The position numbers and the translations under genes are program-made. Positions 15,287-57,543 of a DNA stretch of 64,000 nucleotides are shown here, piece after piece (position 1 is the stretch's first letter; each line of letters starts with the position of its first letter). A model generated the notes under the pieces. It was not told where the DNA came from. It searched no databases and worked only from the letters and a program-made list of their open reading frames with translations. Source of the stretch: Candidatus Nanosyncoccus sp. (lineage in GTDB: Bacteria > Patescibacteriota > Saccharimonadia > Saccharimonadales > Saccharimonadaceae); assembly GCA_045641305.1 (NCBI GenBank), contig JAZUGS010000013.1, positions 421-64,420 on the forward strand, given 5' to 3'.

Positions 15287-16311
15287 TAATCTTCGGCAGC
15301 AGCTTTTTCGCGAACTTTAGCTTCAATTTCGGCCATTAATTCTGGTTTTTCTTTGAAAAGTTTTTTCACGGCTTCACGACCTTGACCAATAGTCTGACCA
15401 TTGTACTTGATGAAAGCGCCGGCTTTTTCGAGAATATTGTTTTGAACGGCGAGGTCTAAAATGTCACCAGTCTTTGAGATACCTTCATTATACATAATGT
15501 CGAATTCAGCCGTGCGGAATGGCGCAGCGATTTTGTTTTTAACGACTTTAACTTTGGTACGGTTGCCAGAGATATTATCGCCATCTTTAATCTGGCCGAT
15601 ACGACGAATATCGAGACGAACAGAAGCATAGAACTTGAGAGCATTACCACCTGTTGTGGTTTCTGGATTACCAAACATGACACCAATTTTCATACGAATT
15701 TGGTTAATGAAGATAACCGTCGCTTTGGATTTACTAATAATACCCGTGAGCTTGCGCATGGCTTGAGACATAAGACGTGCCTGAAGGCCCATTTGGGAGT
15801 CGCCCATATCACCATCAATTTCGGCCTGAGGAACTAGGGCCGCTACAGAGTCAACTACGATAAGATCAACTGCGTTGGAACGTACGAGAGTTTCACAAAT
15901 TTCAAGTGCCTGCTCACCATTGTCTGGCTGAGAGATGAAGAGGTTGGCGGTATCAACGCCAATTTTCTTAGCGTAAGCCGGATCGAGGGCATGCTCGGCA
16001 TCAATAAATGCTGCTTGACCGCCTTGCTTTTGAATTTCAGCAATCGCGTGAAGCGCCAGAGTTGTTTTACCCGAAGATTCTGGACCGTAGATTTCAATAA
16101 TGCGACCTTTAGGATAGCCACCACCGAGCGCCAAGTCCAACGAGAGTGAGCCGGACGGCAAAAGTTCTACATCCATTTTGGGATTTTCACCCAACTTCAT
16201 GATTGCACCTTCACCAAATTGTTTGGTGATTTGGGAAATCGCTAGCTTTAGAGCCTCGGATTTGCCGTCATTTTTAGTATTATCGTCCACCGCTTCTGAT
16301 TTTTTTGCCAT
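15286..16311 (-). CDS. recA: Recombinase RecA
   Basis: [26 protein letters not shown] and [10 protein letters not shown] motifs. Confidence 0.98.
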
Positions 16312-16394
16312 AGTATTACCTTTTTTATGATTGATATTATTATACCACATAGCACGCTATTCTTTATAATACAACCCCATGATATAATAATGTA

Positions 16395-17396
16395 ATGAAA
16401 GTCAAAGAGAATGTGCTTATTTCGGAACTTACCACCATGCGAATTGGCGGTGCGGCGCGTTATGTGCTGGAAATTGAAAGGCCTGAAGAAGTTCCAGAGG
16501 CTTACGAATTTGCCAAGTTATATCTTTTGCCAACTTTTGTCCTCGGTGGCGGAGCAAATACGATCGGGCACGACAGCGGTTTTAATGGCGTAATTTTAAT
16601 GAATAAAATGCGCGGAATTACTCTTGATGGCACAAAAATTCGTGCCATGGGTGGCGAAAACTGGGATGATGTAGTAGCATTTGCCTGCGAGCATGAGCTT
16701 ACTGGCATTGAAGCGCTCAGCAAAATTCCTGGAACAATGGGTGCGGCACCAGTACAAAATATTGGTGCATACGGCCAAGAGATTGCAGCGGTGTTTGAAT
16801 CTGCAGAAGTATATGACACCGAAGAAAAAACTTTTAAAACTTTAACAAAAAAAGATATGAATTTTTCATATCGTAAAAGTATCCTGAATACTACAGGGCG
16901 CGGACGCTATTTTGTAATTGCCGTTACGCTTAATTTAAGCGTAGGCAAGATGCGCCGACCATTCTATAAATCGATCGAAAGTTATATCGCCGAACATAAT
17001 GAAACAGATTTTACTCCTATGGGAATTCGAAAAATTGTTTCAGAAATTCGTGCAGATAAATTACCAGATCCGGCGAAATTTGCAAGCGCAGGCAGTTTCT
17101 TTAAGAATGTCTATCTTGACGATATTGAAGCTCGCAAAGCGGAAGGTCAAGGGCTACCAGTGTATCATGGTAAAGATGGAAATAAAATTAATTCAGGTTG
17201 GTTAATAGAGAAAGCAGGGTTTTCTGGTAAAGTTTTGCATGGGATGCGCGTGAATGAAAAAGCGGCATTGGTTTTGATCAACGAAGGTGCCAAAGGATAT
17301 AACGATCTAGCAGCAGCACGCAACGAAATTGTGAACACAATTTACGACAAGTACGGTTATTGGCTAGAACAAGAGCCAGTGGAGATCCCAGAATGA
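16395..17396 (+). CDS. murB: UDP-N-acetylenolpyruvoylglucosamine reductase
   Basis: LGGGAN, IPGTMGAAPVQNIGAYG, FSYRKS, SAGSFFKN and LEQEP motifs. Confidence 0.95.
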   Translation: MKVKENVLISELTTMRIGGAARYVLEIERPEEVPEAYEFAKLYLLPTFVLGGGANTIGHDSGFNGVILMNKMRGITLDGTKIRAMGGENWDDVVAFACEHELTGIEALSKIPGTMGAAPVQNIGAYGQEIAAVFESAEVYDTEEKTFKTLTKKDMNFSYRKSILNTTGRGRYFVIAVTLNLSVGKMRRPFYKSIESYIAEHNETDFTPMGIRKIVSEIRADKLPDPAKFASAGSFFKNVYLDDIEARKAEGQGLPVYHGKDGNKINSGWLIEKAGFSGKVLHGMRVNEKAALVLINEGAKGYNDLAAARNEIVNTIYDKYGYWLEQEPVEIPE

Positions 17397-18187: not shown

Positions 18188-18229
18188 TGGGCGCTTTACT
18201 TTAGAAGGAGGAAGTGATAGAATGTAGAC

Positions 18230-18300
18230 ATGGATGAGCTCTAGAAACTCATCGTTTTGGTTGGTGATTACTGTTCTGTTTGAACAGTAATCTTTTTAAT
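18230..18300 (+). ncRNA. Candidate antisense (antitoxin) sRNA to copy 2 peptide mRNA
   Basis: A TTTACT...TGaTAGAAT promoter at about 18195-18223 is followed by hairpin GATGAG/CTCATC, then terminator ATTACTGTT-loop-AACAGTAAT plus a T tract. Confidence 0.6.
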
Positions 18301-18342
18301 TTTAGGCTTTACTACAAGTTTGAAATGAAATTCAATCTCCAT
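18268..18342 (-). CDS. 24-aa small peptide MEIEFHFKLVVKPKIKKITVQTEQ, candidate type I toxin (copy 2)
   Basis: AAGGAGG SD; promoter TTGCAA-N16-TATTAT at about 18485-18512; paralog of 1248-1322. Confidence 0.7.
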   Translation of the reverse strand: MEIEFHFKLVVKPKIKKITVQTEQ

Positions 18343-18575
18343 AGCATCCTCCTTAGTTTTTGTTTTTATCTAACTAAACTTTGGGGGACTTCACCCAACT
18401 TATCTAGAATTGTCACGATTTATAAATCCCCCTCACACGAAGGATCTATAATGTTCGAAAATTAAAAATCTCCAACCCGATGTCTATAATACATAGATTG
18501 TGTAGTTTTGCAACCCCGTGAGAAAATTTTGTGAAAGATAGGGAAATTTTAAGCCTAGGCGGGATGAATAAACTA

Positions 18576-24881: not shown

Positions 24882-25044
24882 CCTTTCTAATTAATTTAAT
24901 TTAGGTTGGTTTTTGCTAGCCGAATTGTTAATTTTCGTCTTTTACCACCAACCGAATCGTCTCAGTTTCAAATATCATAGAGTTGCCTGGCGGTTTTTAT
25001 GCCGCCAGGCGGGAAAGTGCGGTCTATACGATGACGAGTTTGAC

Positions 25045-37352: not shown

Positions 37353-37412
37353 GCGTACAACCGTGGCATAGTATTATTATAGCGCAGTCTGGTAGATTTT
37401 GCAACCCCTAGC

Positions 37413-49668: not shown

Positions 49669-50103
49669 TTAGAACATAAGATTTAAGAACAGGAACCATT
49701 TTTCGGGGTTGGTGCGGGACTTTTCGACGGGTTCGGCGGTGACGGTTTGATGCTTGGTCTTGGCCGTGGTGCTATTTTCGGGGAGATAGACTAGGTGCTC
49801 GCCTGGTAGCTGCTTGTTTAGGAATTTGCGAGCGGCGAGTTCTTGGTATTCTTCGGTCTTGTAGTAGGTGTTTTCGAGCTCTAAGGCTTCGACTTCAAGG
49901 CTGATTAGATCGAGATTTTTCTTGCTATTTGCGAGGGTTTCGGTGAGTTCCCAGCTGCGCGACATCGAGCAGATGGATTGATAAGTCCAGGTGAGACAGA
50001 GAAAAATACCGAGCACGAGCACGACGTTTTCAATGGTCAAAAAGTCGTGTTTTAAGCGATATGTGAGCTGATGAAATTTTTGTTGAATTTTAATCTTGCT
50101 CAT
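49669..50103 (-). CDS. FtsL/DivIC-like septum formation protein
   Basis: TM, coiled coil, then EYQELAARKFLNKQLPGE. Confidence 0.6.
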   Translation of the reverse strand: MSKIKIQQKFHQLTYRLKHDFLTIENVVLVLGIFLCLTWTYQSICSMSRSWELTETLANSKKNLDLISLEVEALELENTYYKTEEYQELAARKFLNKQLPGEHLVYLPENSTTAKTKHQTVTAEPVEKSRTNPEKWFLFLNLMF

Positions 50104-50142
50104 GCTTAGTATTATAACATTTTGTGGTAAAATAGAGTAGTC

Positions 50143-50219
50143 GGGGGTGTAGCTCAGTTGGTTAGAGCATGCGTCTTATACACGCAATGTCCTAGGTTCG
50201 AGCCCTAGCACCCCTACCA
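50143..50219 (+). tRNA. tRNA-Ile(TAT)
   Basis: Cloverleaf with anticodon arm TGCGT-CT-TAT-AC-ACGCA and encoded CCA. Confidence 0.85.
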
Positions 50220-50308
50220 GATTTACTATTTTGCACCCGTAGGCTATCGCCTTCGGGCGCGGCATTCGTCGAAAGAGCAAGAGCAAGCTCTTGTCTTTCT
50301 CCTCATTT

Positions 50309-50385
50309 GCACCCGTAGCTCAGTGGATTAGAGCACTTGTCTTCGGAACAAGGTGTCGTGGGTTCGAGTCCCTCCGGGTGTACCA
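50309..50385 (+). tRNA. tRNA-Arg(TCG)
   Basis: Anticodon arm CTTGT-CT-TCG-GA-ACAAG and encoded CCA. Confidence 0.92.
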
Positions 50386-50549
50386 GGTTTGAAATTTCGA
50401 AAAAATTATACTAAAAGAGTTTATCAAAAACAGCCCAAAGAAATTTGGCCACGTAGTGGTAGAATAATATATTTTAATTCGATAAGACGCCGCCACCCAT
50501 GATTGGGTGGCTTTTTACGCCAAAGTGCCAAGTTTATGATATAATTACT

Positions 50550-50635
50550 ACATAAAAGTCCCGCCATCCCCCAGGATGGTGACGGGATTGTATGGTTTTG
50601 TAGTTAACTAGCCTAGCTAGTTAACTTTTTTAGTT
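50550..50635 (+). ncRNA. Candidate antisense sRNA to copy 3 peptide mRNA
   Basis: TGaTATAAT at about 50538-50546, hairpin TCCCG..CATC/GATG..CGGGA, terminator GTTAACTAG-loop-CTAGTTAAC plus T6. Confidence 0.55.
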
Positions 50636-50694
50636 TTCAATCTCTTGATTGAGAGTTTAATACTAAACTTAAAGAATTTAATCTCGAAGCTCAT
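50617..50694 (-). CDS. 25-aa small peptide MSFEIKFFKFSIKLSIKRLKTKKVN, candidate type I toxin (divergent copy 3)
   Basis: AAAGGAG SD; promoter TTGCAA-N17-(TGc)TATCCT about 150 nt upstream; same stop-in-hairpin layout as copies 1 and 2. Confidence 0.6.
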   Translation of the reverse strand: MSFEIKFFKFSIKLSIKRLKTKKVN

Positions 50695-51027
50695 ATTTTC
50701 ACTCCTTTCCGCTGGGAGACCTCTAATAGCCTGGGTCTATCGTTCAGCAAGATCGCCCGTCAAACCCTCAAAGAAACTTTAAGAATTGGCACCTCGCCAG
50801 AACAACTAAAAATTTTAACGAACCACACGGGGAGGATAGCATGGCTGGGATGGTTTTGCAACCGCATGAAAAATATTTGTGGAAGCTAAGGAAATTTTAA
50901 GCCTAGGCAGGATGGGTTTTACGCCAAAGTGCCAAGTTTTTATCCTCTTGCGCTTTGGGTTTGTTTGGTGTATAATGTGGGGGTAAATCCCGTAAGGGTC
51001 GGCCCTGCTTAAGCGGGGAAAACAATC

Positions 51028-51420
51028 TCACAATAGGCGCTTTAGCCTATTTTTTATTTCTGCCAAATCTTCTTTCTTCATTCTCCCCATTAGCTTTCCT
51101 GAAATCCTTGATGTATCAAACGCCCTCAACTGACTTAAAATAGCTACGCTATGCTGATTATCTAGAAATGTAAAAGAAAAATAATATTTTCCAGATTTAT
51201 TTCGTGAAGTCAATGGCACGCCCCAGAATAATTCTTTTGAAAAACCACGAATTATTGCGACTGGCCTAGAAAATAGTTCACCTTTGCCGTCCTGCTCCAT
51301 ACCGATGTTATCGCCAATTAACACCCAATAAATGCCGCCTTCCTTGTAGTTGGGTCTAGCATCGGTATTATTGTTTACTACCATTTTAACTGGTGTCCAT
51401 TTTTTATAATCTTTTTTCAT
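51028..51420 (-). CDS. PemK/MazF-family endoribonuclease toxin
   Basis: GGIYWVLIGDNIGMEQDGKG..FSRPVAII, GVPLTS, ILSQLRAFDTSRI. Confidence 0.9.
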   Translation of the reverse strand: MKKDYKKWTPVKMVVNNNTDARPNYKEGGIYWVLIGDNIGMEQDGKGELFSRPVAIIRGFSKELFWGVPLTSRNKSGKYYFSFTFLDNQHSVAILSQLRAFDTSRISGKLMGRMKKEDLAEIKNRLKRLL

Positions 51421-51648
51421 GTTTACTCCTATTTTAATTTAACAAAAAAACGCGCTGAGCGCGGTAGCGCGATTGTAGCGCGGATGGGTGGATTTTGCAA
51501 CCCCATGAGAATTTTTAAGCCTAGGCGGGATAGTTATAGATGATAGCCATAATAAGTGGCTATTTTTGGGCTTAGGGAAGGTGCGGCATAATAAAATAGT
51601 AGGTAGTGGGCAAAAGGTGGGAAGGAACAATAATTAAAGGAGGATAGC

Positions 51649-52626
51649 ATGACGAATGCTTCAAACACTACCCCAAAAACCCAAAACACCAAAAATACTA
51701 ATACTACCGAAAACAAAACGACAAAAAGTAAAATAGTAGAAATAAACACCATTGCAAAACTTGAACAGAAAATCAAAGGCCTACAAGTATCAAAAACAAA
51801 ATCTGCTAAACAGGATATTGATGAACTTAAACGGGAAATACGGCATTTACAAGAAAAATATAAAGCCGCCGCAATGGAGCTGGAGAAAAATAATCTATCG
51901 GAATTAATATTCATAGACTCTACAAATGGCTTTAAAAAATTAGTGGGAAATTCGGCACTATTTTACACACACGATATTGCTAAACGGATTGGGCGTCGCG
52001 TCAACCTGTTGGCGGATACGGACCGTTATTCCCGCTCAGAAAATGGTGTAGTTTGCTTAAAACTTACGGGCGATTTAGAAAATAGTTTGGCGAGTGTATT
52101 TATTGTGCGAAGTTCAGAACAACAAATTGAGGGTTTAACTCGTTTCATGCTACCAGCAAAACATTCAACAAAAGAGTTAGAAGAAATAAAAAATGATGCC
52201 AATAAAATTTCGGAGCAGATTAATACTATAGTAGTACCAAAATCTTTGATACCAACTATTTTTAGTGATTTGAGAGAGCTAAATGTGATCGTCTTTCAAC
52301 ATACGCAAAATATGCCACCATTCGCGAGAAACATTATCGGCTCCGAATTATTAGCAACTAGTGACAAAATGTTGCTAAGGTATTGCGAAACTACGAATGG
52401 CGATTTAAAAGTTGAAGACGGTTTGCTGCGAATTATAAAAGGTGCAAGATTTATCAAATATGAAATGAAAAATGTAGAAAGTTTGAGGTTGATGCATAAT
52501 AAAACGATTATGCAGATTTTGGAACTAGTAGTCAGAATTGAAAAAGAGGCTTTGAAAGAATATAAGATTCGTAAAATGGCAGTTGAGAAAATCATTAAGA
52601 ACGCAGTGCGCGAGGAGCAAAAATGA
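51649..52626 (+). CDS. DGR accessory protein: coiled coil + MutS-I-like domain + Avd-like four-helix bundle
   Basis: LIFIDSTNGFKKLVGNSALF resembles MutS domain I, and PTIFSDL...MPPFARNIIGSEL resembles Avd. Its stop overlaps the RT start (ATGA). Confidence 0.65.
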   Translation: MTNASNTTPKTQNTKNTNTTENKTTKSKIVEINTIAKLEQKIKGLQVSKTKSAKQDIDELKREIRHLQEKYKAAAMELEKNNLSELIFIDSTNGFKKLVGNSALFYTHDIAKRIGRRVNLLADTDRYSRSENGVVCLKLTGDLENSLASVFIVRSSEQQIEGLTRFMLPAKHSTKELEEIKNDANKISEQINTIVVPKSLIPTIFSDLRELNVIVFQHTQNMPPFARNIIGSELLATSDKMLLRYCETTNGDLKVEDGLLRIIKGARFIKYEMKNVESLRLMHNKTIMQILELVVRIEKEALKEYKIRKMAVEKIIKNAVREEQK

Positions 52627-53732
52627 GTCAGGCGTTTAGTGATTGGCTATTAAACCAATTATGGATTGCGTATTTGGAGGCAAGAAAGGGCAAGCGTAAA
52701 ACCGTTGACGAACATAGATTTGAAACAAATGACATGGCAAACGTTATAGCTTTGCGTGATGAAATTATGGAGCGAAGATACCATCCGCGACGTGGTGAGG
52801 CGTTTATTATCTATGATCCTGTGCGCAGAGAAATTTTTGCGGCACCATTTCCAGATAGAGTAATACACCATTTTTTATACAATGTATCGGCAGATTGGTG
52901 GGACAGGAGATTCATTAATGATTCTTATTCTTGTCGGGTGGGCAAGGGGACGTTATATGGGCATCAGCGTCTTACGAAACACATCCGTCAGGTTTCGCAA
53001 AATTATAAAGAACCCGCTTTTGTCGTAAAACTTGATATTCAAGGTTATTTTATGAGCCTTAGTCACAAAAGACTATACGAGCGCGTGTGTTGGGGGCTCG
53101 ACAGACAGTTCAAAGACGACAAAGGGCAACTTTACAGAACAGTAAAATATCTTTGGCGGGAAGTCATTTTTGATAACCCAACTGACAAAGTCCATATTAA
53201 AGGTAAGCCATCAGACTGGAAGGATTTTCCGCGTAATAAATCACTATTTTGCCAACCAAAAGGTCAAGGTATCGTAATCGGCAATCTCACGAGTCAACTA
53301 TTATCTAATATCTATTTGGATCAAGTGGATAGATTCATTACAATGAAACTAGGATATAAGCATTATGGAAGATATGTAGACGACTTTTACTATGTTGTTC
53401 CCTGGTCGCAAAAAGACCGTGCAATTCGCGATATTAAAGTGATTGAGGATTATATGAGAAGTTTAGGTTTGACGCTACATCCGCGCAAGAGGTTTATGGG
53501 AGATTCAAGGAAAGGTGTGCCTTTTCTTGGCGTTGTAGTCTATAATGGTTACACGGTACCTGGGGAGCGAGTAAAGAAAAAATGTAAAGCAGCAATGGTA
53601 AAATTTGCCTGCGGGCAAGATGGTGCAAAATACGAATCGGTAGTATCCTATATGGGGCATCTTGAGCACATAAACAGCAAAAAGTTTCTTAAAGGACTTT
53701 TTGACTCTCTGGGATGGGATTATCACTTGTGA
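52623..53732 (+). CDS. DGR reverse transcriptase
   Basis: APFPDRVIHH, CRVGKG, KLDIQGYF, GNLTSQLLSNIYLD (SQ signature) and YGRYVDDF; adjacent TR/VR pair. Confidence 0.96.
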   Translation: MSQAFSDWLLNQLWIAYLEARKGKRKTVDEHRFETNDMANVIALRDEIMERRYHPRRGEAFIIYDPVRREIFAAPFPDRVIHHFLYNVSADWWDRRFINDSYSCRVGKGTLYGHQRLTKHIRQVSQNYKEPAFVVKLDIQGYFMSLSHKRLYERVCWGLDRQFKDDKGQLYRTVKYLWREVIFDNPTDKVHIKGKPSDWKDFPRNKSLFCQPKGQGIVIGNLTSQLLSNIYLDQVDRFITMKLGYKHYGRYVDDFYYVVPWSQKDRAIRDIKVIEDYMRSLGLTLHPRKRFMGDSRKGVPFLGVVVYNGYTVPGERVKKKCKAAMVKFACGQDGAKYESVVSYMGHLEHINSKKFLKGLFDSLGWDYHL

Positions 53733-53739
53733 AAATTTG

Positions 53740-53990
53740 AGAAGATCGAGGGGCGAACACGCGGAACTAGGAACCGCCGAAACCCTAGCGAGCGACACAA
53801 CGCACGGACATGCCGTTGTACCGATTGTTGTTGTTGGACGGGTTGACGTTACTGGAATTGAAGTTCAAGTTGTACGCGTTGCTGCTATTGTTGGACGTAG
53901 ACGACCAGTAGTTGCCGTTGTTGCCGGTATTGTAGACAGCACCGTAATTTCCGTTGTAGTTGCCACTACGCAGGAAGTAGAAAGGCGAAA
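53740..53990 (-). ncRNA. DGR template region (TR)
   Basis: 251-bp homolog of 54237-54487; the minus strand carries 20 AAC/AAT codons and no upstream start of its own. Confidence 0.95.
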
Positions 53991-54187
53991 GGACAAAACA
54001 TCAACCACCGAAAAACCTACTTTGCTATCATAAAGACCTTGACCCTTATGAAAATATCGACCTGCGCGCGTCGCTAAAGCGACGCGAACAAGGAGGTTTT
54101 AGATCTTCTCACGAGTCTAGCGGGAGGCGGAGCCAAATCCTCAATGCCTCAGGAATAGACCCACGGGAGAACATTACCCGTGGGTTT

Positions 54188-54196
54188 ATTATACCA
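54188..54196 (-). promoter_or_regulatory. Extended -10 promoter positioned to transcribe the TR RNA
   Basis: TGgTATAAT between the VR and TR, pointing toward the TR. Confidence 0.6.
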
Positions 54197-54236
54197 TACA
54201 TGCAGTAATAACCTAAAGCGTTTTTTCTCCGAGTTC

Positions 54237-54487
54237 AGAAGATCGAGGGGCGAACACGCGGAACTAGGGACCGCCGAAACCCTAGCGAGCGACACAACGC
54301 ACGGACATGCCGCGGTACCGATTGAGGTCGTTGGACGGGTTGACGCTACTGGAATTGAAGTACAAGTAGTACGCGCAGCTGCTATTGGTGGACGTAGACG
54401 ACCAGTAGCGGCCGTAGCGGCCGGTACCGTAGACAGCACCGTAAAGCCCGAGGTAGAGGCCACTACGCAGGAAGTAGAAAGGCGAAA
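54237..54487 (-). repeat. DGR variable region (VR) plus IMH
   Basis: 26 mismatches to the TR by hand alignment: 25 at TR adenines and one non-adenine difference (54269 vs 53772) after the stop codon. Confidence 0.95.
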
Positions 54488-56447
54488 TAGAGATATTAGA
54501 TTTTGTTAGCCCCAATTTACTAAACTCACCAGAGGAGCCACCAGTTGGTAAGCGCCAGCCTTTTGGACAGATGGAATCAGAGACGTTAGTACCGCTACTA
54601 GTTACGCTGGCATTTCCGGAACCAGCTGTAGCAGCAAACCACGAATAGAATGTACCTACGCTCCAGTGAGCACAAGTTTCAGCACTATTGCCTGCACCTA
54701 TACAGTCGTCTTCAGTCTTCCAATTTACGAATGTAGTGCCGTTTTGCATATAGACTGGGGAGAAATAGGTATCGCCGTCATTGCCATAGTCGCCAGAGGT
54801 GCCGGCTGCTACGTCTGAGGCGGGACGGTAGGAATGAGCGGTTGTGTTAAAATCACCATCCCATTGACCATCTGGATCTTCAATGCCACTGGCGGTCTTA
54901 TATTGATGGTCTTGAGTGCTGCGATTTGGTGTCCAGCCATTTGCTACTGCTGTGGCAGAGTTTAAATCTGTATCTGCGGCGGTTAGAGTAGTTCCTGTGT
55001 CTAACACAAAGTCTAGGTTCTGCGTCATCCAGATGTTGCCGTCGGCTTGCTTGGCAGCGTAGTAGGTTTTACCATCGCGCTCATCGCAGAGTTGAACTTG
55101 GGTGTTAACATCCTTAAATAGCGTACTTTTGAGATTAGTGATATTCTGCATGGCAGGAGTGGTACCGCATAAACTGGCTACTTCCCAGATAGCATAGAGG
55201 GTCTTGGTGGTGTTTTTGGGGACGGAGATGGTAGCTGGGGTGTAAGAGTTATTGTCGGGGTCAAATGCATAGGTTGGGGTGGTAGCAGTGGAGTTTTCGT
55301 CGTAGCCGAGGAAGTTGTAGCCGGAGCGAACTGGCTTGCCTGTAACATTGAAGCTGAGTGATGCGTCGTCAGGATCGTCACTACTATCTTCTACGCCTTC
55401 TGGAAGGCTGGTAACTGTATCGGTGGTGTTTTTGTTGTATTCTAGATAGAAGAAGTTTTTGATGGTGAAGAGGTTTTCTTTGGTGTGGGTCCAGATGCCA
55501 GTCTCGACGGCGACATCGTATGAACCAAGTGCGAGACTATTTGGCAATTTGCAGCTCAGAGTGAGGGGGTTCTGTGTGGTGATAACGATATCTGCGCAGG
55601 AAGATGTGGTGTCGCCATTGGTGAGGTTGACGGCAACGTCGCCGAGGTAGAGGTTGGTAGAAAGGCTGGTGGTAAGGTGGATGGTCTTATTGCTGTAGTC
55701 GCCCGGGATGGTGGTTTCGCCCTCGGCAATGTCAATCTCGCCAATAGTGGAGGCGGAATCGACAAGGTGACCGATGACAAGGTAGCTTAAGGTAGTAGTG
55801 TAATCGCCTGGAGTGAGGGTCATGTTGGCCTTGGTACCGAGGTAAACGGTAGTGGTCTCTGGAGTGATGGCAGAGGCGGTCTTATGCTTGATGGCTTGAG
55901 TAGTATCATGATCTACATTAGCATAAAGCGGCATGGCGGCGAACTTGGCATCGGCGGAAGGACTAGTGGTATCGTAAGTAGCGTCAAAATTGGCAACATT
56001 AGCAACGGCATAGCCCCAAGAATTATTATCTAGCGCAGCAGGACTGGCGAAAGTGCCAGTGGTGGCATTGATAGTGTTGGTGTTGTCCTTGGTAGTGGCA
56101 CCTTCGAGGTAGATTTTATTATCTGTGACGCCTTTATTGGTGGCGATGTAAAGTGTGTAGCCAGAAGGGGAGTTGGCCGTGACGCTGATACTGTTCTCGG
56201 CGATACCAACTGCGCCTGATGATGACGGGTTGATAGATAGATTAGTACTCTGCGGTGTGGAGAGGGATAGAGAGTAATTTTGTGGATCGATTTTGGCCGT
56301 AGCGCTGTCATCTCTACGGGCCAGAGGTAAGATTGTAAAGAACAAGAGAAGGCCAAGCGTGCCACAAGCAAAATAAGGCACAAAATGTCGCACTTGTGGG
56401 GACAATTTGAGCCTGTTTATTTTATTTTTGTGACAGCTATTAACCAT
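54282..56447 (-). CDS. DGR target: membrane-anchored surface protein with C-terminal FISUMP/C-type-lectin-fold domain
   Basis: N-terminal TM; InlB B-repeat-like segment (RSGYNFLGY...TLYAIWE); WMTQNL, CPKGWRLPT, YWSST and SVRCVAR. Confidence 0.9.
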   Translation of the reverse strand: MVNSCHKNKINRLKLSPQVRHFVPYFACGTLGLLLFFTILPLARRDDSATAKIDPQNYSLSLSTPQSTNLSINPSSSGAVGIAENSISVTANSPSGYTLYIATNKGVTDNKIYLEGATTKDNTNTINATTGTFASPAALDNNSWGYAVANVANFDATYDTTSPSADAKFAAMPLYANVDHDTTQAIKHKTASAITPETTTVYLGTKANMTLTPGDYTTTLSYLVIGHLVDSASTIGEIDIAEGETTIPGDYSNKTIHLTTSLSTNLYLGDVAVNLTNGDTTSSCADIVITTQNPLTLSCKLPNSLALGSYDVAVETGIWTHTKENLFTIKNFFYLEYNKNTTDTVTSLPEGVEDSSDDPDDASLSFNVTGKPVRSGYNFLGYDENSTATTPTYAFDPDNNSYTPATISVPKNTTKTLYAIWEVASLCGTTPAMQNITNLKSTLFKDVNTQVQLCDERDGKTYYAAKQADGNIWMTQNLDFVLDTGTTLTAADTDLNSATAVANGWTPNRSTQDHQYKTASGIEDPDGQWDGDFNTTAHSYRPASDVAAGTSGDYGNDGDTYFSPVYMQNGTTFVNWKTEDDCIGAGNSAETCAHWSVGTFYSWFAATAGSGNASVTSSGTNVSDSICPKGWRLPTGGSSGEFSKLGLTKSNISISPFYFLRSGLYLGLYGAVYGTGRYGRYWSSTSTNSSCAYYLYFNSSSVNPSNDLNRYRGMSVRCVAR

Positions 56448-56498: not shown

Positions 56499-57404
56499 CT
56501 AAAAATCTATTTTGAAATAGCCTAATAGAGATTTGAATTTGTCTTGTGCGGCAAGGCAGGTATCACGGAGGTAACCTGGCTGATTTTGCCATTCTTTGAG
56601 ACCACGATAATAGAACATTTTGAGTTCATCATCAATAATAAATGGCACGATGCCAAGGCGGAGGCACTCTTTAAATAAAATGAGGCGCCCAACGCGGCCA
56701 TTGCCGTCTTGGAAGGGATGAATCGCCTCAAAACGATAATGAAACTCCAAAAGGTCATCGAGGCCGAGTACCTTGCGTGAGCGATACCATTTGAGAAGCT
56801 TTTTCATTTCCTTGCTAACGTTTTCTGGTGCGGTGGTAGACTGACCACCAACTTCGTTGGGGAGCTTCTTGTATGCGCCGACAGCGAACCAATCTTCGCG
56901 ACTATCAGAGGTGCCGTTTTTGAGGATGAAATGGAGGCGGCGAATCATGGTCTCGGTAGGCTTGCGCTTGGCGTTTTCGATAATATAATCAATGCAACGG
57001 AAGTGATTGGACGTCTCGACAACATCATCGGCACGAACGCCAGCAAACTTATGCTCAATGCCGACGGTGTTGGTCTCGAAAATGTAGCGAGTCTGGTCGT
57101 GGGAGAGGCGGCTGCCCTCGATATGATTGGAATTATAAGTGAGGTCGATTTGCACACGATGATAGATGCCACCAGAGATATTTTTGCGGTCTTCGAAGCG
57201 GAGCACAGAAAGCAGGTCGCGAGTAGGCGACTGGCTAGCATTGAGGCGAGCAGGCTTGGTGGCGTTGGCTGGAATATACCAAATTCCGCCCTCGCACTTG
57301 GCGCCTTCGATACGCCCCTTGGCGCAGTAGTCGCGAACAGCGCGCTCAGAAATCTGCCATTTTGTGGCGATGACGGGAATAGTAACATAATGTTGATCTG
57401 CCAT
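56499..57404 (-). CDS. Fic/Doc-family protein with N-terminal HTH
   Basis: Canonical HPFQDGNGRVGR motif; HTH IATKWQISERAVRDYC. Confidence 0.92.
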   Translation of the reverse strand: MADQHYVTIPVIATKWQISERAVRDYCAKGRIEGAKCEGGIWYIPANATKPARLNASQSPTRDLLSVLRFEDRKNISGGIYHRVQIDLTYNSNHIEGSRLSHDQTRYIFETNTVGIEHKFAGVRADDVVETSNHFRCIDYIIENAKRKPTETMIRRLHFILKNGTSDSREDWFAVGAYKKLPNEVGGQSTTAPENVSKEMKKLLKWYRSRKVLGLDDLLEFHYRFEAIHPFQDGNGRVGRLILFKECLRLGIVPFIIDDELKMFYYRGLKEWQNQPGYLRDTCLAAQDKFKSLLGYFKIDF

Positions 57405-57543
57405 AAGCCTATTATACTCTCTTAAACGGCAAAAATCAAGAATAGTTTTGCAAAACTTTTTAGGTTTTTGCCGATTGGTTTTAGTACGAAAAAATGCCAC
57501 CGAAGTAGCATTTTTTCTTGCACCTAATTAACTTGCGCGCTGG

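Follow-up and report, generated by a model that had tools for sequence, protein, structure and literature searches.

We analysed a 64-kb stretch of DNA from Candidatus Nanosyncoccus sp. (hereafter the window, within which all coordinates are positions) and describe a cassette of about 380 bases (50537–50914) that adjoins two tRNA genes. A first reading of the sequence, the original prediction, had seen in it the third, divergent copy of a peptide/antisense family with two further copies in the window, and we refer to it as copy 3. Our analyses indicate that copy 3 is, with high probability, a real micropeptide gene combined with a gene for a cis-antisense RNA, and they place it in a family of cassettes found in related genomes. 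By analogy with known modules, the chances are about even that the cassette functions as a toxin–antitoxin system of a type I-like kind. We describe it as working like a type I system, and not as a member of any known family, because its peptides, when checked, did not prove to be small hydrophobic toxins.

The peptide gene and predicted antisense RNA of copy 3

The elements of copy 3 occupy both strands:

50895–50907, minus strand: upstream box CCTAGGCTTAAAA with core palindrome GCCTAGGC, within a 62-nucleotide (nt) element
50854–50863, minus strand: G-rich extended −35 region GGTTGCAAAA, containing the −35 hexamer TTGCAA (50856–50861)
50833–50838, minus strand: −10 hexamer TATCCT, separated from the −35 hexamer by a 17-nt spacer
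50695–50826, minus strand: predicted 5′ leader of about 132 nt, with a long imperfect hairpin at 50739–50806
50700–50710, minus strand: Shine–Dalgarno (SD) region GGAAAGGAGTG, with GGAG at 50702–50705 and the ATG 7 nt further on
50617–50694, minus strand: 25-codon open reading frame (ORF) encoding MSFEIKFFKFSIKLSIKRLKTKKVN, taken from the ORF list
50557–50589, minus strand: hairpin followed by CUUUUAU on the mRNA strand, scored as a terminator in the terminator scan
50537–50545, plus strand: extended −10 promoter TGATATAAT of the antisense RNA, a perfect example of its kind
50552–50632, plus strand: predicted antisense RNA of about 81 nt, with hairpin 1 (50557–50589), hairpin 2 (50602–50626) and a U tract (TTTTTT, 50627–50632)
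50513–50535 and 50917–50939, plus strand: exact 23-nt repeat TTTTACGCCAAAGTGCCAAGTTT, its first copy directly upstream of the antisense −10

Copy 3 is a small ORF (fewer than about 60 codons) with its own promoter and ribosome-binding site. The TTGCAA promoter, the SD, the 25-residue peptide ORF with its stop codon in a hairpin, and the convergent extended −10 promoter with a two-hairpin RNA ending in a U tract are all present, as the original prediction had described them; the leader that it had put at about 150 nt is closer to 132 nt. Transcription of the peptide mRNA is predicted to start at about 50826, and the leader's initial 20 nt are kept in two related loci, L041 and L054. In these loci, as in a strain variant, X12, that is about 94% identical to copy 3 over 50557–50826, the counterpart of the −10 hexamer reads TATCGT. 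The G-rich TTGCAAAA −35 also precedes the tRNA-Met gene (37397–37407), and since a tRNA promoter uses it too, we read it as a genuine promoter element of this organism. The hairpin at 50557–50589 is the likely intrinsic terminator of the peptide mRNA, which would then measure about 277–280 nt. The TAG stop codon (50617–50619) lies within the 11-bp palindromic hairpin at 50602–50626. The predicted antisense RNA overlaps the final 16 nt of the ORF and the 3′ untranslated region (UTR) of the mRNA, its terminator covering the stop codon, and because hairpin 50557–50589 also scores as a minus-strand terminator, both predicted transcripts probably overlap along the entire antisense RNA.

The substitution pattern indicates that the 25-codon ORF is a real coding gene under purifying selection. 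Nei–Gojobori pN/pS ratios were 0.21 for copy 3 and L002, 0.34 for copy 3 and L041, 0.37 for L041 and L002, 0.32 for L007 and L012, and 0.26 for copies 1 and 2, with pS between 0.28 and 1.0 in five cross-cassette pairs and synonymous sites near saturation in the inter-species pairs. In the codons outside the antisense RNA, copy 3 and L002 differ by six synonymous and two non-synonymous changes, L007 and L012 by six and one. All four ORF substitutions in X12 (at 50686, 50662, 50656 and 50638) fall in third positions and all four are synonymous. Between copies 1 and 2, compensatory base changes preserve both antisense hairpins and the C-terminus of the peptide is altered (VTVQLER versus ITVQTEQ).

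One might suppose that the RNAs alone are functional, the convergent small transcripts acting as an insulator between convergent genes or as a trans-acting small RNA, with the ORF incidental. The antisense terminator hairpin and U tract have clearly left their mark on the C-terminal codons, and the cassettes lie between convergent genes with terminators facing both ways, as such a role would have it. It is nevertheless improbable: the third-position periodicity and the pN/pS of 0.2–0.37 extend to the part of the ORF that the antisense RNA does not cover, and a strong, correctly spaced SD is found in each of the eight cassettes with sequence upstream of the ORF (in L002 the contig ends before it).

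The antisense gene stands out from its AT-rich surroundings. Its predicted RNA folds at −31.5 kcal/mol (z = −5.1; none of 200 shuffles folded as well), compared with z = −4.1 for copy 2 and −3.2 for copy 1. We also scanned both strands of the window for units in which an extended −10 is followed, 15–90 nt from the start, by a hairpin and a T run. Seven such units were found, compared with 1.5 ± 1.3 (maximum 4) in 20 Markov shuffles; three of these seven units are the antisense units on the 3′ ends of the three peptide ORFs, and a fourth (50457–50517) adjoins copy 3. Layouts of this kind are thus not equally frequent in shuffled DNA, the outcome by which the original prediction could have been dismissed. 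A TG-n-TATAAT box, a hairpin and a 25-codon ORF are each common in AT-rich DNA, and a chance assembly of the three in intergenic sequence had to be considered. Against it stand the excess of units and the coincidence of three of them with peptide ORFs, the folding scores of −3.2 to −5.1, the orthologous or paralogous cassettes on at least eight other contigs, and selection on the protein; on these comparative data a chance origin is effectively refuted. The promoter and intrinsic terminator predicted for the overlapping cis-antisense RNA are kept in all nine cassettes of the family described below.

In the predicted folds, and in these only, the mRNA is structured and its ribosome-binding site occluded. 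The segment 50596–50830 folds at −71.5 kcal/mol (z = −4.4), and the full-length cassette mRNAs fold with the SD inside a helix. For copies 1 and 2 and for L041, the SD is predicted to pair with a conserved anti-SD, CACUUCCUCCUU, in the 3′ UTR (ensemble probability 0.8–0.97); in copy 3, its GAGU core is predicted to pair with ACUC inside the ORF (p ~0.99). Placed by hand on the predicted folds, all three leader-stem substitutions of X12 keep pairing (A-U to G-U, G-U to A-U and U-G to C-G), and the single substitution in antisense hairpin 1 turns G-U into G-C. The perfect anti-SD CACUUCCUCCUU occurs in the 3′ UTR of type A and some type B mRNAs (1370–1385 and 18203–18218 in the window; L041 and L002), and its opposite strand reads GAAGGAGGAAGTGATAGAATGTAG, an SD followed by a start–stop (ATG TAG) that overlaps the antisense −10.

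Each copy of the repeat TTTTACGCCAAAGTGCCAAGTTT precedes a plus-strand promoter of a small RNA, one being the copy-3 antisense RNA and the other a small RNA convergent with a neighbouring MazF-like gene. A relative of the repeat, CGCCAAAGTGCC, occupies the equivalent place in L054 and in an X12 contig, and we regard TTTTACGCCAAAGTGCCAAGTTT as a candidate operator.

Two further ORFs in the region were considered and rejected as genes. One, of 19 residues on the plus strand (50841–50900), has an SD-like GGAGGATAGCATG with a 13-nt match to 51639–51651, which does not exceed chance level; the other, a TTG-initiated ORF of 45 residues on the plus strand (50645–50782), has no SD and lies outside the predicted antisense RNA. 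A search of the window against Rfam returned only tRNAs at the gathering score and nothing credible at E ≤ 10 within 50380–51100, a region that by this comparison does not belong to a known RNA family.

A family of exchangeable cassettes

FolD, encoded next to copy 2, puts the window among the Saccharibacteria; by this protein, the nearest named genomes are Candidatus Nanosyncoccus metagenome-assembled genomes from the guts of ruminants and other animals, and the closest contigs are Logan assemblies with 96% FolD identity. As the original prediction had proposed, a profile was built from the window peptides and searched against the small ORFs of relatives (about 0.9 Mb of related loci), with the layout then checked by eye. 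Nine distinct cassettes of three sequence types were recovered, the window included:

Type A, copy 1: cassette 1094–1383, plus strand; peptide 1248–1322, MEIEFHFKLVVKPKIKKVTVQLER; antisense −10 TGATAGAAT
Type A, copy 2: cassette 18205–18495, minus strand; peptide 18268–18342, MEIEFHFKLVVKPKIKKITVQTEQ; antisense −10 TGATAGAAT
Type B, copy 3: MSFEIKFFKFSIKLSIKRLKTKKVN
Type B, L002: MCLEFRIFRFSIKLSIKRLKH
Type B, L041, L042 and L046, which share an identical peptide: MSLRIKLFRFIITLSITRAKNKKSL
Type C (upstream of recA), L007: MQIELEEMKVTIKLKITSAKKQK
Type C (upstream of recA), L012: MEVEVENIKVTIKLKITPRKKGN
Type C (upstream of recA), L016: MEVFEIDYVIIKLKKSSRPKAEKKQ
Type C (upstream of recA), L056: MEVSEMKIVIKLKKVSSAREEA

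In all nine cassettes the ORF has 21–25 codons and the antisense gene has an extended −10 (TGnTAnnAT) that reads TGATAGAAT, TGATATAAT, TGGTAAAAT, TGGTAGGAT or TGGTAGAAT, to which type C adds a consensus TTGAYY −35 at 17 nt. Likewise, in all nine the antisense terminator stem lies in the C-terminal codons and its U tract complements Lys (AAA/AAG) codons. The hairpin sequences are completely different between types, and the predicted antisense RNAs range from 45 to 85 nt.

A peptide pattern was also derived from the three copies, so that its three matches in the window show specificity only. Scans with it found no match among genome and viral contigs and one false positive (a longer phage ORF, L001) among metagenome contigs. 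Since these collection-wide scans gave no further members, the known range of the family is a Nanosyncoccus-like clade, sampled around folD and recA. One match of the hidden Markov model (HMM) search, MIFETETIRLVVKDEN (24928–24978), was rejected: it is conserved at the nucleotide level, has a frame-breaking indel relative to L044, lacks an SD and resembles a promoter. The nucleotide-conserved element to which it belongs (24928–24990, minus strand; L044 16771–16850, minus strand; TTTGAAACTGAGACGATTCGGTTGGTGGT.AA.GACGAAAATTAACAATTCGGCTAGC) lies upstream of a DUF11/CLIPPER-domain gene in a TrbL-like cluster and has the look of a promoter (TTGAAA-17-TGGTAAAAG) or leader RNA and not of a gene for a peptide.

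How is copy 3 related to the other two copies? Copies 1 and 2 are 93% identical over 292 nt in a BLAST comparison within the window. The original prediction had noted little nucleotide identity between them and copy 3, and identity is indeed low, although not nil: the 62-nt element upstream of the copy-3 promoter (50853–50914) is 85% identical to 18505–18566 of copy 2. This element, with its box CCTAGGCTTAAAA, is common to copy 3, copy 2 and the promoter of the MazF-like gene, where a shorter form precedes the gene (51485–51531); a degenerate form lies upstream of copy 1. More telling is the slot downstream of folD, which copy 2 occupies in the window. In L041 and L042 (96% FolD identity) and in L046 (a species with 78% FolD identity), a type B cassette is found there. 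It matches copy 3 in its 5′ element and promoter and is homologous to copy 3 in the start of the leader, the SD region, the ORF and the 5′ hairpin of the antisense RNA. Its 3′ flank is that of copy 2, namely the antisense promoter TGATAGAAT and the bidirectional folD terminator. L002 and an X12 contig likewise join a type B core to a type A antisense promoter. Since cassettes of the copy-3 type thus take the place of the copy-2 type downstream of folD, between flanks common to both, all three copies of the window are members of one cassette system. The earlier suggestion that the architecture is conserved beyond sequence similarity is borne out by a layout that recurs in nine cassettes of three types and by the copy-3-type core in the copy-2 slot.

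Between types, the peptides are only weakly similar. In Smith–Waterman alignments scored against composition-preserving shuffles, copy 3 gave p = 0.007–0.011 with copies 1 and 2 and p = 0.0004–0.003 with L007 and L012, and copy 1 gave p = 0.04–0.06 with L007 and L012. That the peptides of the three types share ancestry is plausible, not proven. We conclude that the three types are exchangeable alleles of one cassette system.

The distribution of the cassettes across genomes is patchy. In related genomes, the folD slot holds a cassette of the copy-1/2 type, of the copy-3 type or of the recA type (L007), or nothing; it is empty, with a gap of 1–120 nt, in L043–L045, L047–L052, L056 and L057. The slot of copy 1 is occupied by a DUF5640 gene in L044 and L045. 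About 3 of 197 nt separate the L041 cassette from that of L046, whereas identity is 78% over the aligned folD region (about 1 kb, which takes in the cassette), indicating a recent exchange of the cassette between species. A BLAST search of the cassette against phage and plasmid collections gave no match, and scans of viral sequences found no match to the copy-3 peptide core and one to the box, which we read as unrelated.

The type C cassettes raise the question of whether the ORF acts as a leader peptide, or as an upstream ORF, to control the next gene by attenuation or translational coupling. In L007, L012, L016 and L056, recA follows the ORF on the same strand after 100–130 nt, and no obvious mRNA terminator intervenes. 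For the system as a whole this explanation is very improbable. The genes next to copies 1, 2 and 3 (tsaB, folD and tRNA-Arg) are convergent, so that nothing lies downstream to regulate and the arrangement is not that of an attenuation leader; at the recA-type loci, recA has its own extended −10 promoter and an outward-facing antisense promoter stands between the ORF and recA.

Neighbouring genes and a shared promoter box

The only conserved neighbour of copy-3-type cassettes is the MazF-like gene, which lies on the same strand as copy 3. The features around copy 3, and the sites of the palindrome in its upstream box, are:

51028–51420, minus strand: MazF/PemK-like gene (Pfam E = 3.6e-9)
51472–51504, minus strand: its promoter, GGGGTTGCAAAA-17-TACAAT with a GCCTAGGC box, of the same type as that of copy 3
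52623–53732, plus strand: reverse transcriptase gene of a diversity-generating retroelement (DGR)
53737–53990 and 54234–54487: template repeat and variable repeat of the DGR (254 nt, 89% identical)
18553–18560, 50901–50908 and 51519–51526: GCCTAGGC sites in the window; others lie in L005, L014, L031, L043 and L049–L052

The order of MazF-like gene, convergent small RNA, box and type B cassette recurs in L054, with a MazF 83% identical. In the window the MazF/PemK-like gene is solo, with no protein antitoxin ORF. It has a terminator-like hairpin inside its own 5′ leader (51444–51463, minus strand) and a convergent small-RNA unit whose promoter, TTGCGC-17-TATAAT, lies at 50948–50976 (plus strand) and whose terminator (51032–51059) falls in the last codons of the MazF-like ORF. 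This arrangement may represent a second antisense-controlled toxin. We considered whether the cassette peptide is an antitoxin or partner of the MazF-like protein; this is unlikely, given that copy-3-type cassettes occur without a MazF-like gene in L041, L046 and L002. In L002, a 262-residue P-loop protein (962–1902, minus strand), zeta-toxin-like by eye (motif GLPGAGKT), and a 49-residue ORF lie between folD and the cassette, and the slot downstream of folD seems to collect toxin-type modules.

The palindrome GCCTAGGC, usually in the form CCTAGGCTTA, occurs 18 times in 686 kb of Saccharibacteria loci, a sample biased by loci that were all picked around folD and recA; nine sites lie in the recA upstream region of relatives and five at cassette or MazF-like promoters. 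A CCTAGAC variant precedes the radA-like gene of the window. The palindrome could mark a site for a shared regulator, of genes that respond to damage or stress, or be what lost cassettes have left behind. In the window itself, recA starts at 16312 by comparison with relatives (MAKK...) and not at 16350 as in the ORF list (region 16300–16395), and upstream of it lies the promoter GGGGTTGTAT-17-TGGTATAAT with no GCCTAGGC box.

On the other side of copy 3, a tRNA-Ile gene with a UAU anticodon (tat; 50143–50219) immediately precedes tRNA-Arg(tcg) and the cassette; tRNA-Ile with this anticodon is uncommon in bacteria. Directly past tRNA-Arg lies the mini transcription unit at 50457–50517 (plus strand), whose box, TGGTAGAAT, is also that of the recA-type antisense promoters and whose terminator, GCCACCCATGATTGGGTGGCTTTTT, is strong (fold z = −3.6). 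The unit could be what remains of the antisense gene of another cassette, or a tiny small RNA.

The DGR that had been placed near copy 3 is real, with a reverse transcriptase and a repeat pair within 52623–56447. Of 27 repeat mismatches, 25 are at plus-strand T, and the adenine-specific signal accordingly lies on the minus strand, that of the target gene, which encodes 721 residues with Fib_succ_major/Lcl_C domains on the strand opposite to the reverse transcriptase gene. A Fic/DOC gene (56499–57500) follows the DGR. The further suggestion that the cassette stabilises the tRNA-adjacent or DGR island is unsupported: nothing ties the cassette to the DGR, and cassettes of the same system also lie between core genes (folD/TrbL-like and radA/tsaB) and upstream of recA.

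Possible function of the cassette and comparison with known systems

The peptides of the family have 21–25 residues, an acidic N-terminus, a basic C-terminus and a net charge of +2 to +7. Hydrophobic and polar residues mostly alternate in them, and a beta-type hydrophobic moment above that of shuffles (p = 0.003–0.07) is found in six of eight peptides; copy 3, with alternating hydrophobic and basic residues, has a net charge of +7. None of the known type I toxin families represented in Pfam and NCBIfam (Hok, Ldr, Fst, TxpA/BsrG, Ibs, ShoB, TisB, AapA and others) matched by profile, and an exact look-up of seven peptides among about 15 billion predicted proteins found none present, as expected, because ORFs of this size fall under the thresholds of gene callers. 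Were the peptide toxic, its chemistry would suggest a surface-active beta-sheet or nucleic-acid binding and not a helical pore.

In conjunction with the predicted layout, we propose the following model. A moderately strong minus-strand promoter would produce an mRNA of about 280 nt, whose structured leader and sequestered ribosome-binding site would keep translation of the 25-residue basic amphipathic peptide low. From the plus strand, a strong promoter of the extended −10 kind would yield the antisense RNA of about 81 nt with its two hairpins, whose complementarity to the final codons and 3′ UTR of the mRNA is perfect. Pairing, probably initiated by loop–loop contacts between the mirrored hairpins, would trigger cleavage of the duplex and decay of the mRNA, or else hold the mRNA in a fold that cannot be translated, and the peptide would be produced only once the antisense RNA runs out. 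Transcription of both RNAs, the repression mechanism and a growth-inhibitory peptide are all inferred. A search for an RNase III signature in the window and the related loci found none, which is uninformative given the small fractions of the genomes sampled.

What speaks for a toxin–antitoxin role is the number of features shared with type I modules whose antisense RNAs overlap the 3′ end: the layout, the asymmetry in promoter strength and the predicted occlusion of the SD, to which can be added multiple copies, a patchy occurrence, exchange between genomes and neighbouring toxin genes (MazF-like in the window and L054, zeta-like in L002). Several observations weigh against such a role or against parts of the model. 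By definition, a type I toxin is a small hydrophobic protein (PMC3919570, PMC6563280), and the cassette peptides are not small hydrophobic membrane proteins. No family peptide has a membrane-spanning hydrophobic stretch, and the maximum 15-residue Kyte–Doolittle mean is 0.2–1.3, compared with 1.8–3.2 for nine known type I toxins. Five family peptides had no match in Pfam-A or NCBIfam at E ≤ 10. The HMMs of the individual types do not retrieve one another, and the homology of the three peptide types is weak. At copy 3, the antisense promoter has no recognisable −35, and the mRNA is without the 3′ anti-SD that copies 1 and 2 and L041 carry. The recA-type cassettes have no mRNA terminator between the ORF and recA, and a role as an upstream ORF of recA is possible there. 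Finally, copies 1, 2 and 3 were not found in any RNA run searched; the zero reads on 50100–51700 in three RNA-seq runs with the same organism label are uninformative.

It is conceivable, though on balance unlikely, that the cassette encodes a non-toxic micropeptide under antisense control, with a regulatory or structural role (for example, a beta-strand that adds to a partner, or a nucleic-acid binder) and no addiction. Coding selection and the antisense gene are explained equally well in this way, and the peptide is not hydrophobic. The position of the cassette directly upstream of recA in four relatives, and the GCCTAGGC box common to recA upstream regions, would fit a regulator of the stress response. 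However, three divergent copies in 64 kb, presence or absence in close relatives, near-identical cassettes across species with a 78% identical folD region, and MazF- and zeta-like company are all unusual for a housekeeping regulator and all typical of toxin–antitoxin cassettes.

What would a toxin–antitoxin-like cassette mean in this lineage? Saccharibacteria have tiny genomes and live attached to host bacteria. To our knowledge, their small RNAs and micropeptides are essentially unannotated. A literature search returned no report linking Saccharibacteria with type I toxin–antitoxin systems, and the titles returned by a broader search on Patescibacteria suggest none. A conserved, mobile family of antisense-guarded micropeptides, with several copies in each genome, would give a phylum regarded as poor in regulation a further, RNA-based level of control, and the compact cassette of two promoters, two terminators and one peptide could serve to trace recombination between strains of gut and rumen Saccharibacteria. 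Should the peptide prove toxic, type I toxins would have to be defined more widely than as membrane helices; if it is not, it is still a new conserved micropeptide with a defined regulator. Taken as a whole, and as a rather doubtful proposal, the cassette might be the first type I toxin–antitoxin-like system in Patescibacteria. Its toxin would be of a new kind, a cationic amphipathic beta-strand of 21–25 residues in place of a transmembrane helix, the cassettes would change places among fixed intergenic slots through recombination in their conserved promoter flanks, and a GCCTAGGC operator shared with recA, radA and the solo MazF-like toxin would form a stress- or damage-inducible regulon in an obligate epibiont.

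Among known systems, those of Bacillus subtilis with overlapping 3′ ends are among the closest, and have hydrophobic membrane toxins of 38–59 residues and antitoxin RNAs of 100–220 nt. The cassettes as predicted share with bsrG/SR4, txpA/RatA, bsrE/SR5 and yonT/SR6 a convergent mRNA and antisense RNA that overlap at their 3′ ends, an SD in a double-stranded region, multiple copies and an association with mobile regions. For bsrG/SR4, an antitoxin RNA that is complementary to the toxin mRNA at its 3′ end promotes RNase III-dependent decay of that mRNA, and binding of the antitoxin RNA also lengthens the SD helix, tightening sequestration and inhibiting translation (PMC3834814; see also PMC3531473). 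Unlike the B. subtilis toxins, the cassette peptides are only 21–25 residues long, basic and amphipathic, with no transmembrane stretch, and the antisense RNAs are only 45–85 nt; the two groups have no sequence or profile similarity.

In the Enterococcus faecalis par system (fst/RNA II), the convergent transcripts share bidirectional terminator hairpins and the ORF is very small (cf. the discussion in PMC3834814). In a similar fashion, the copy-3 hairpin at 50557–50589 can terminate the mRNA while serving as the 5′ hairpin of the antisense RNA. The par interaction also uses 5′ direct repeats, and Fst is a transmembrane peptide. No 5′ direct repeats were seen in the cassettes, and their peptide is not transmembrane.

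The hok mRNA is kept inert by fold-back inhibition, a long-distance locking of its 5′ and 3′ regions. The predicted pairing of the SD with a 3′ anti-SD in copies 1 and 2 and L041 is reminiscent of hok/sok and of Helicobacter aapA1/IsoA1. Unlike the cassette antisense RNA, which overlaps the 3′ end, Sok and IsoA1 overlap the 5′ region of their mRNAs, and copy 3 does without the anti-SD. Type I toxins of Clostridioides difficile carry a Lys-rich C-terminal tail. They also have an N-terminal transmembrane helix, unlike the Saccharibacteria peptides. The C. difficile modules (PMC6563280; PMC5961336) nonetheless resemble the cassettes described here as chromosomal, convergent pairs of a small ORF and an antisense RNA in a gut bacterium, near defence or mobile regions.

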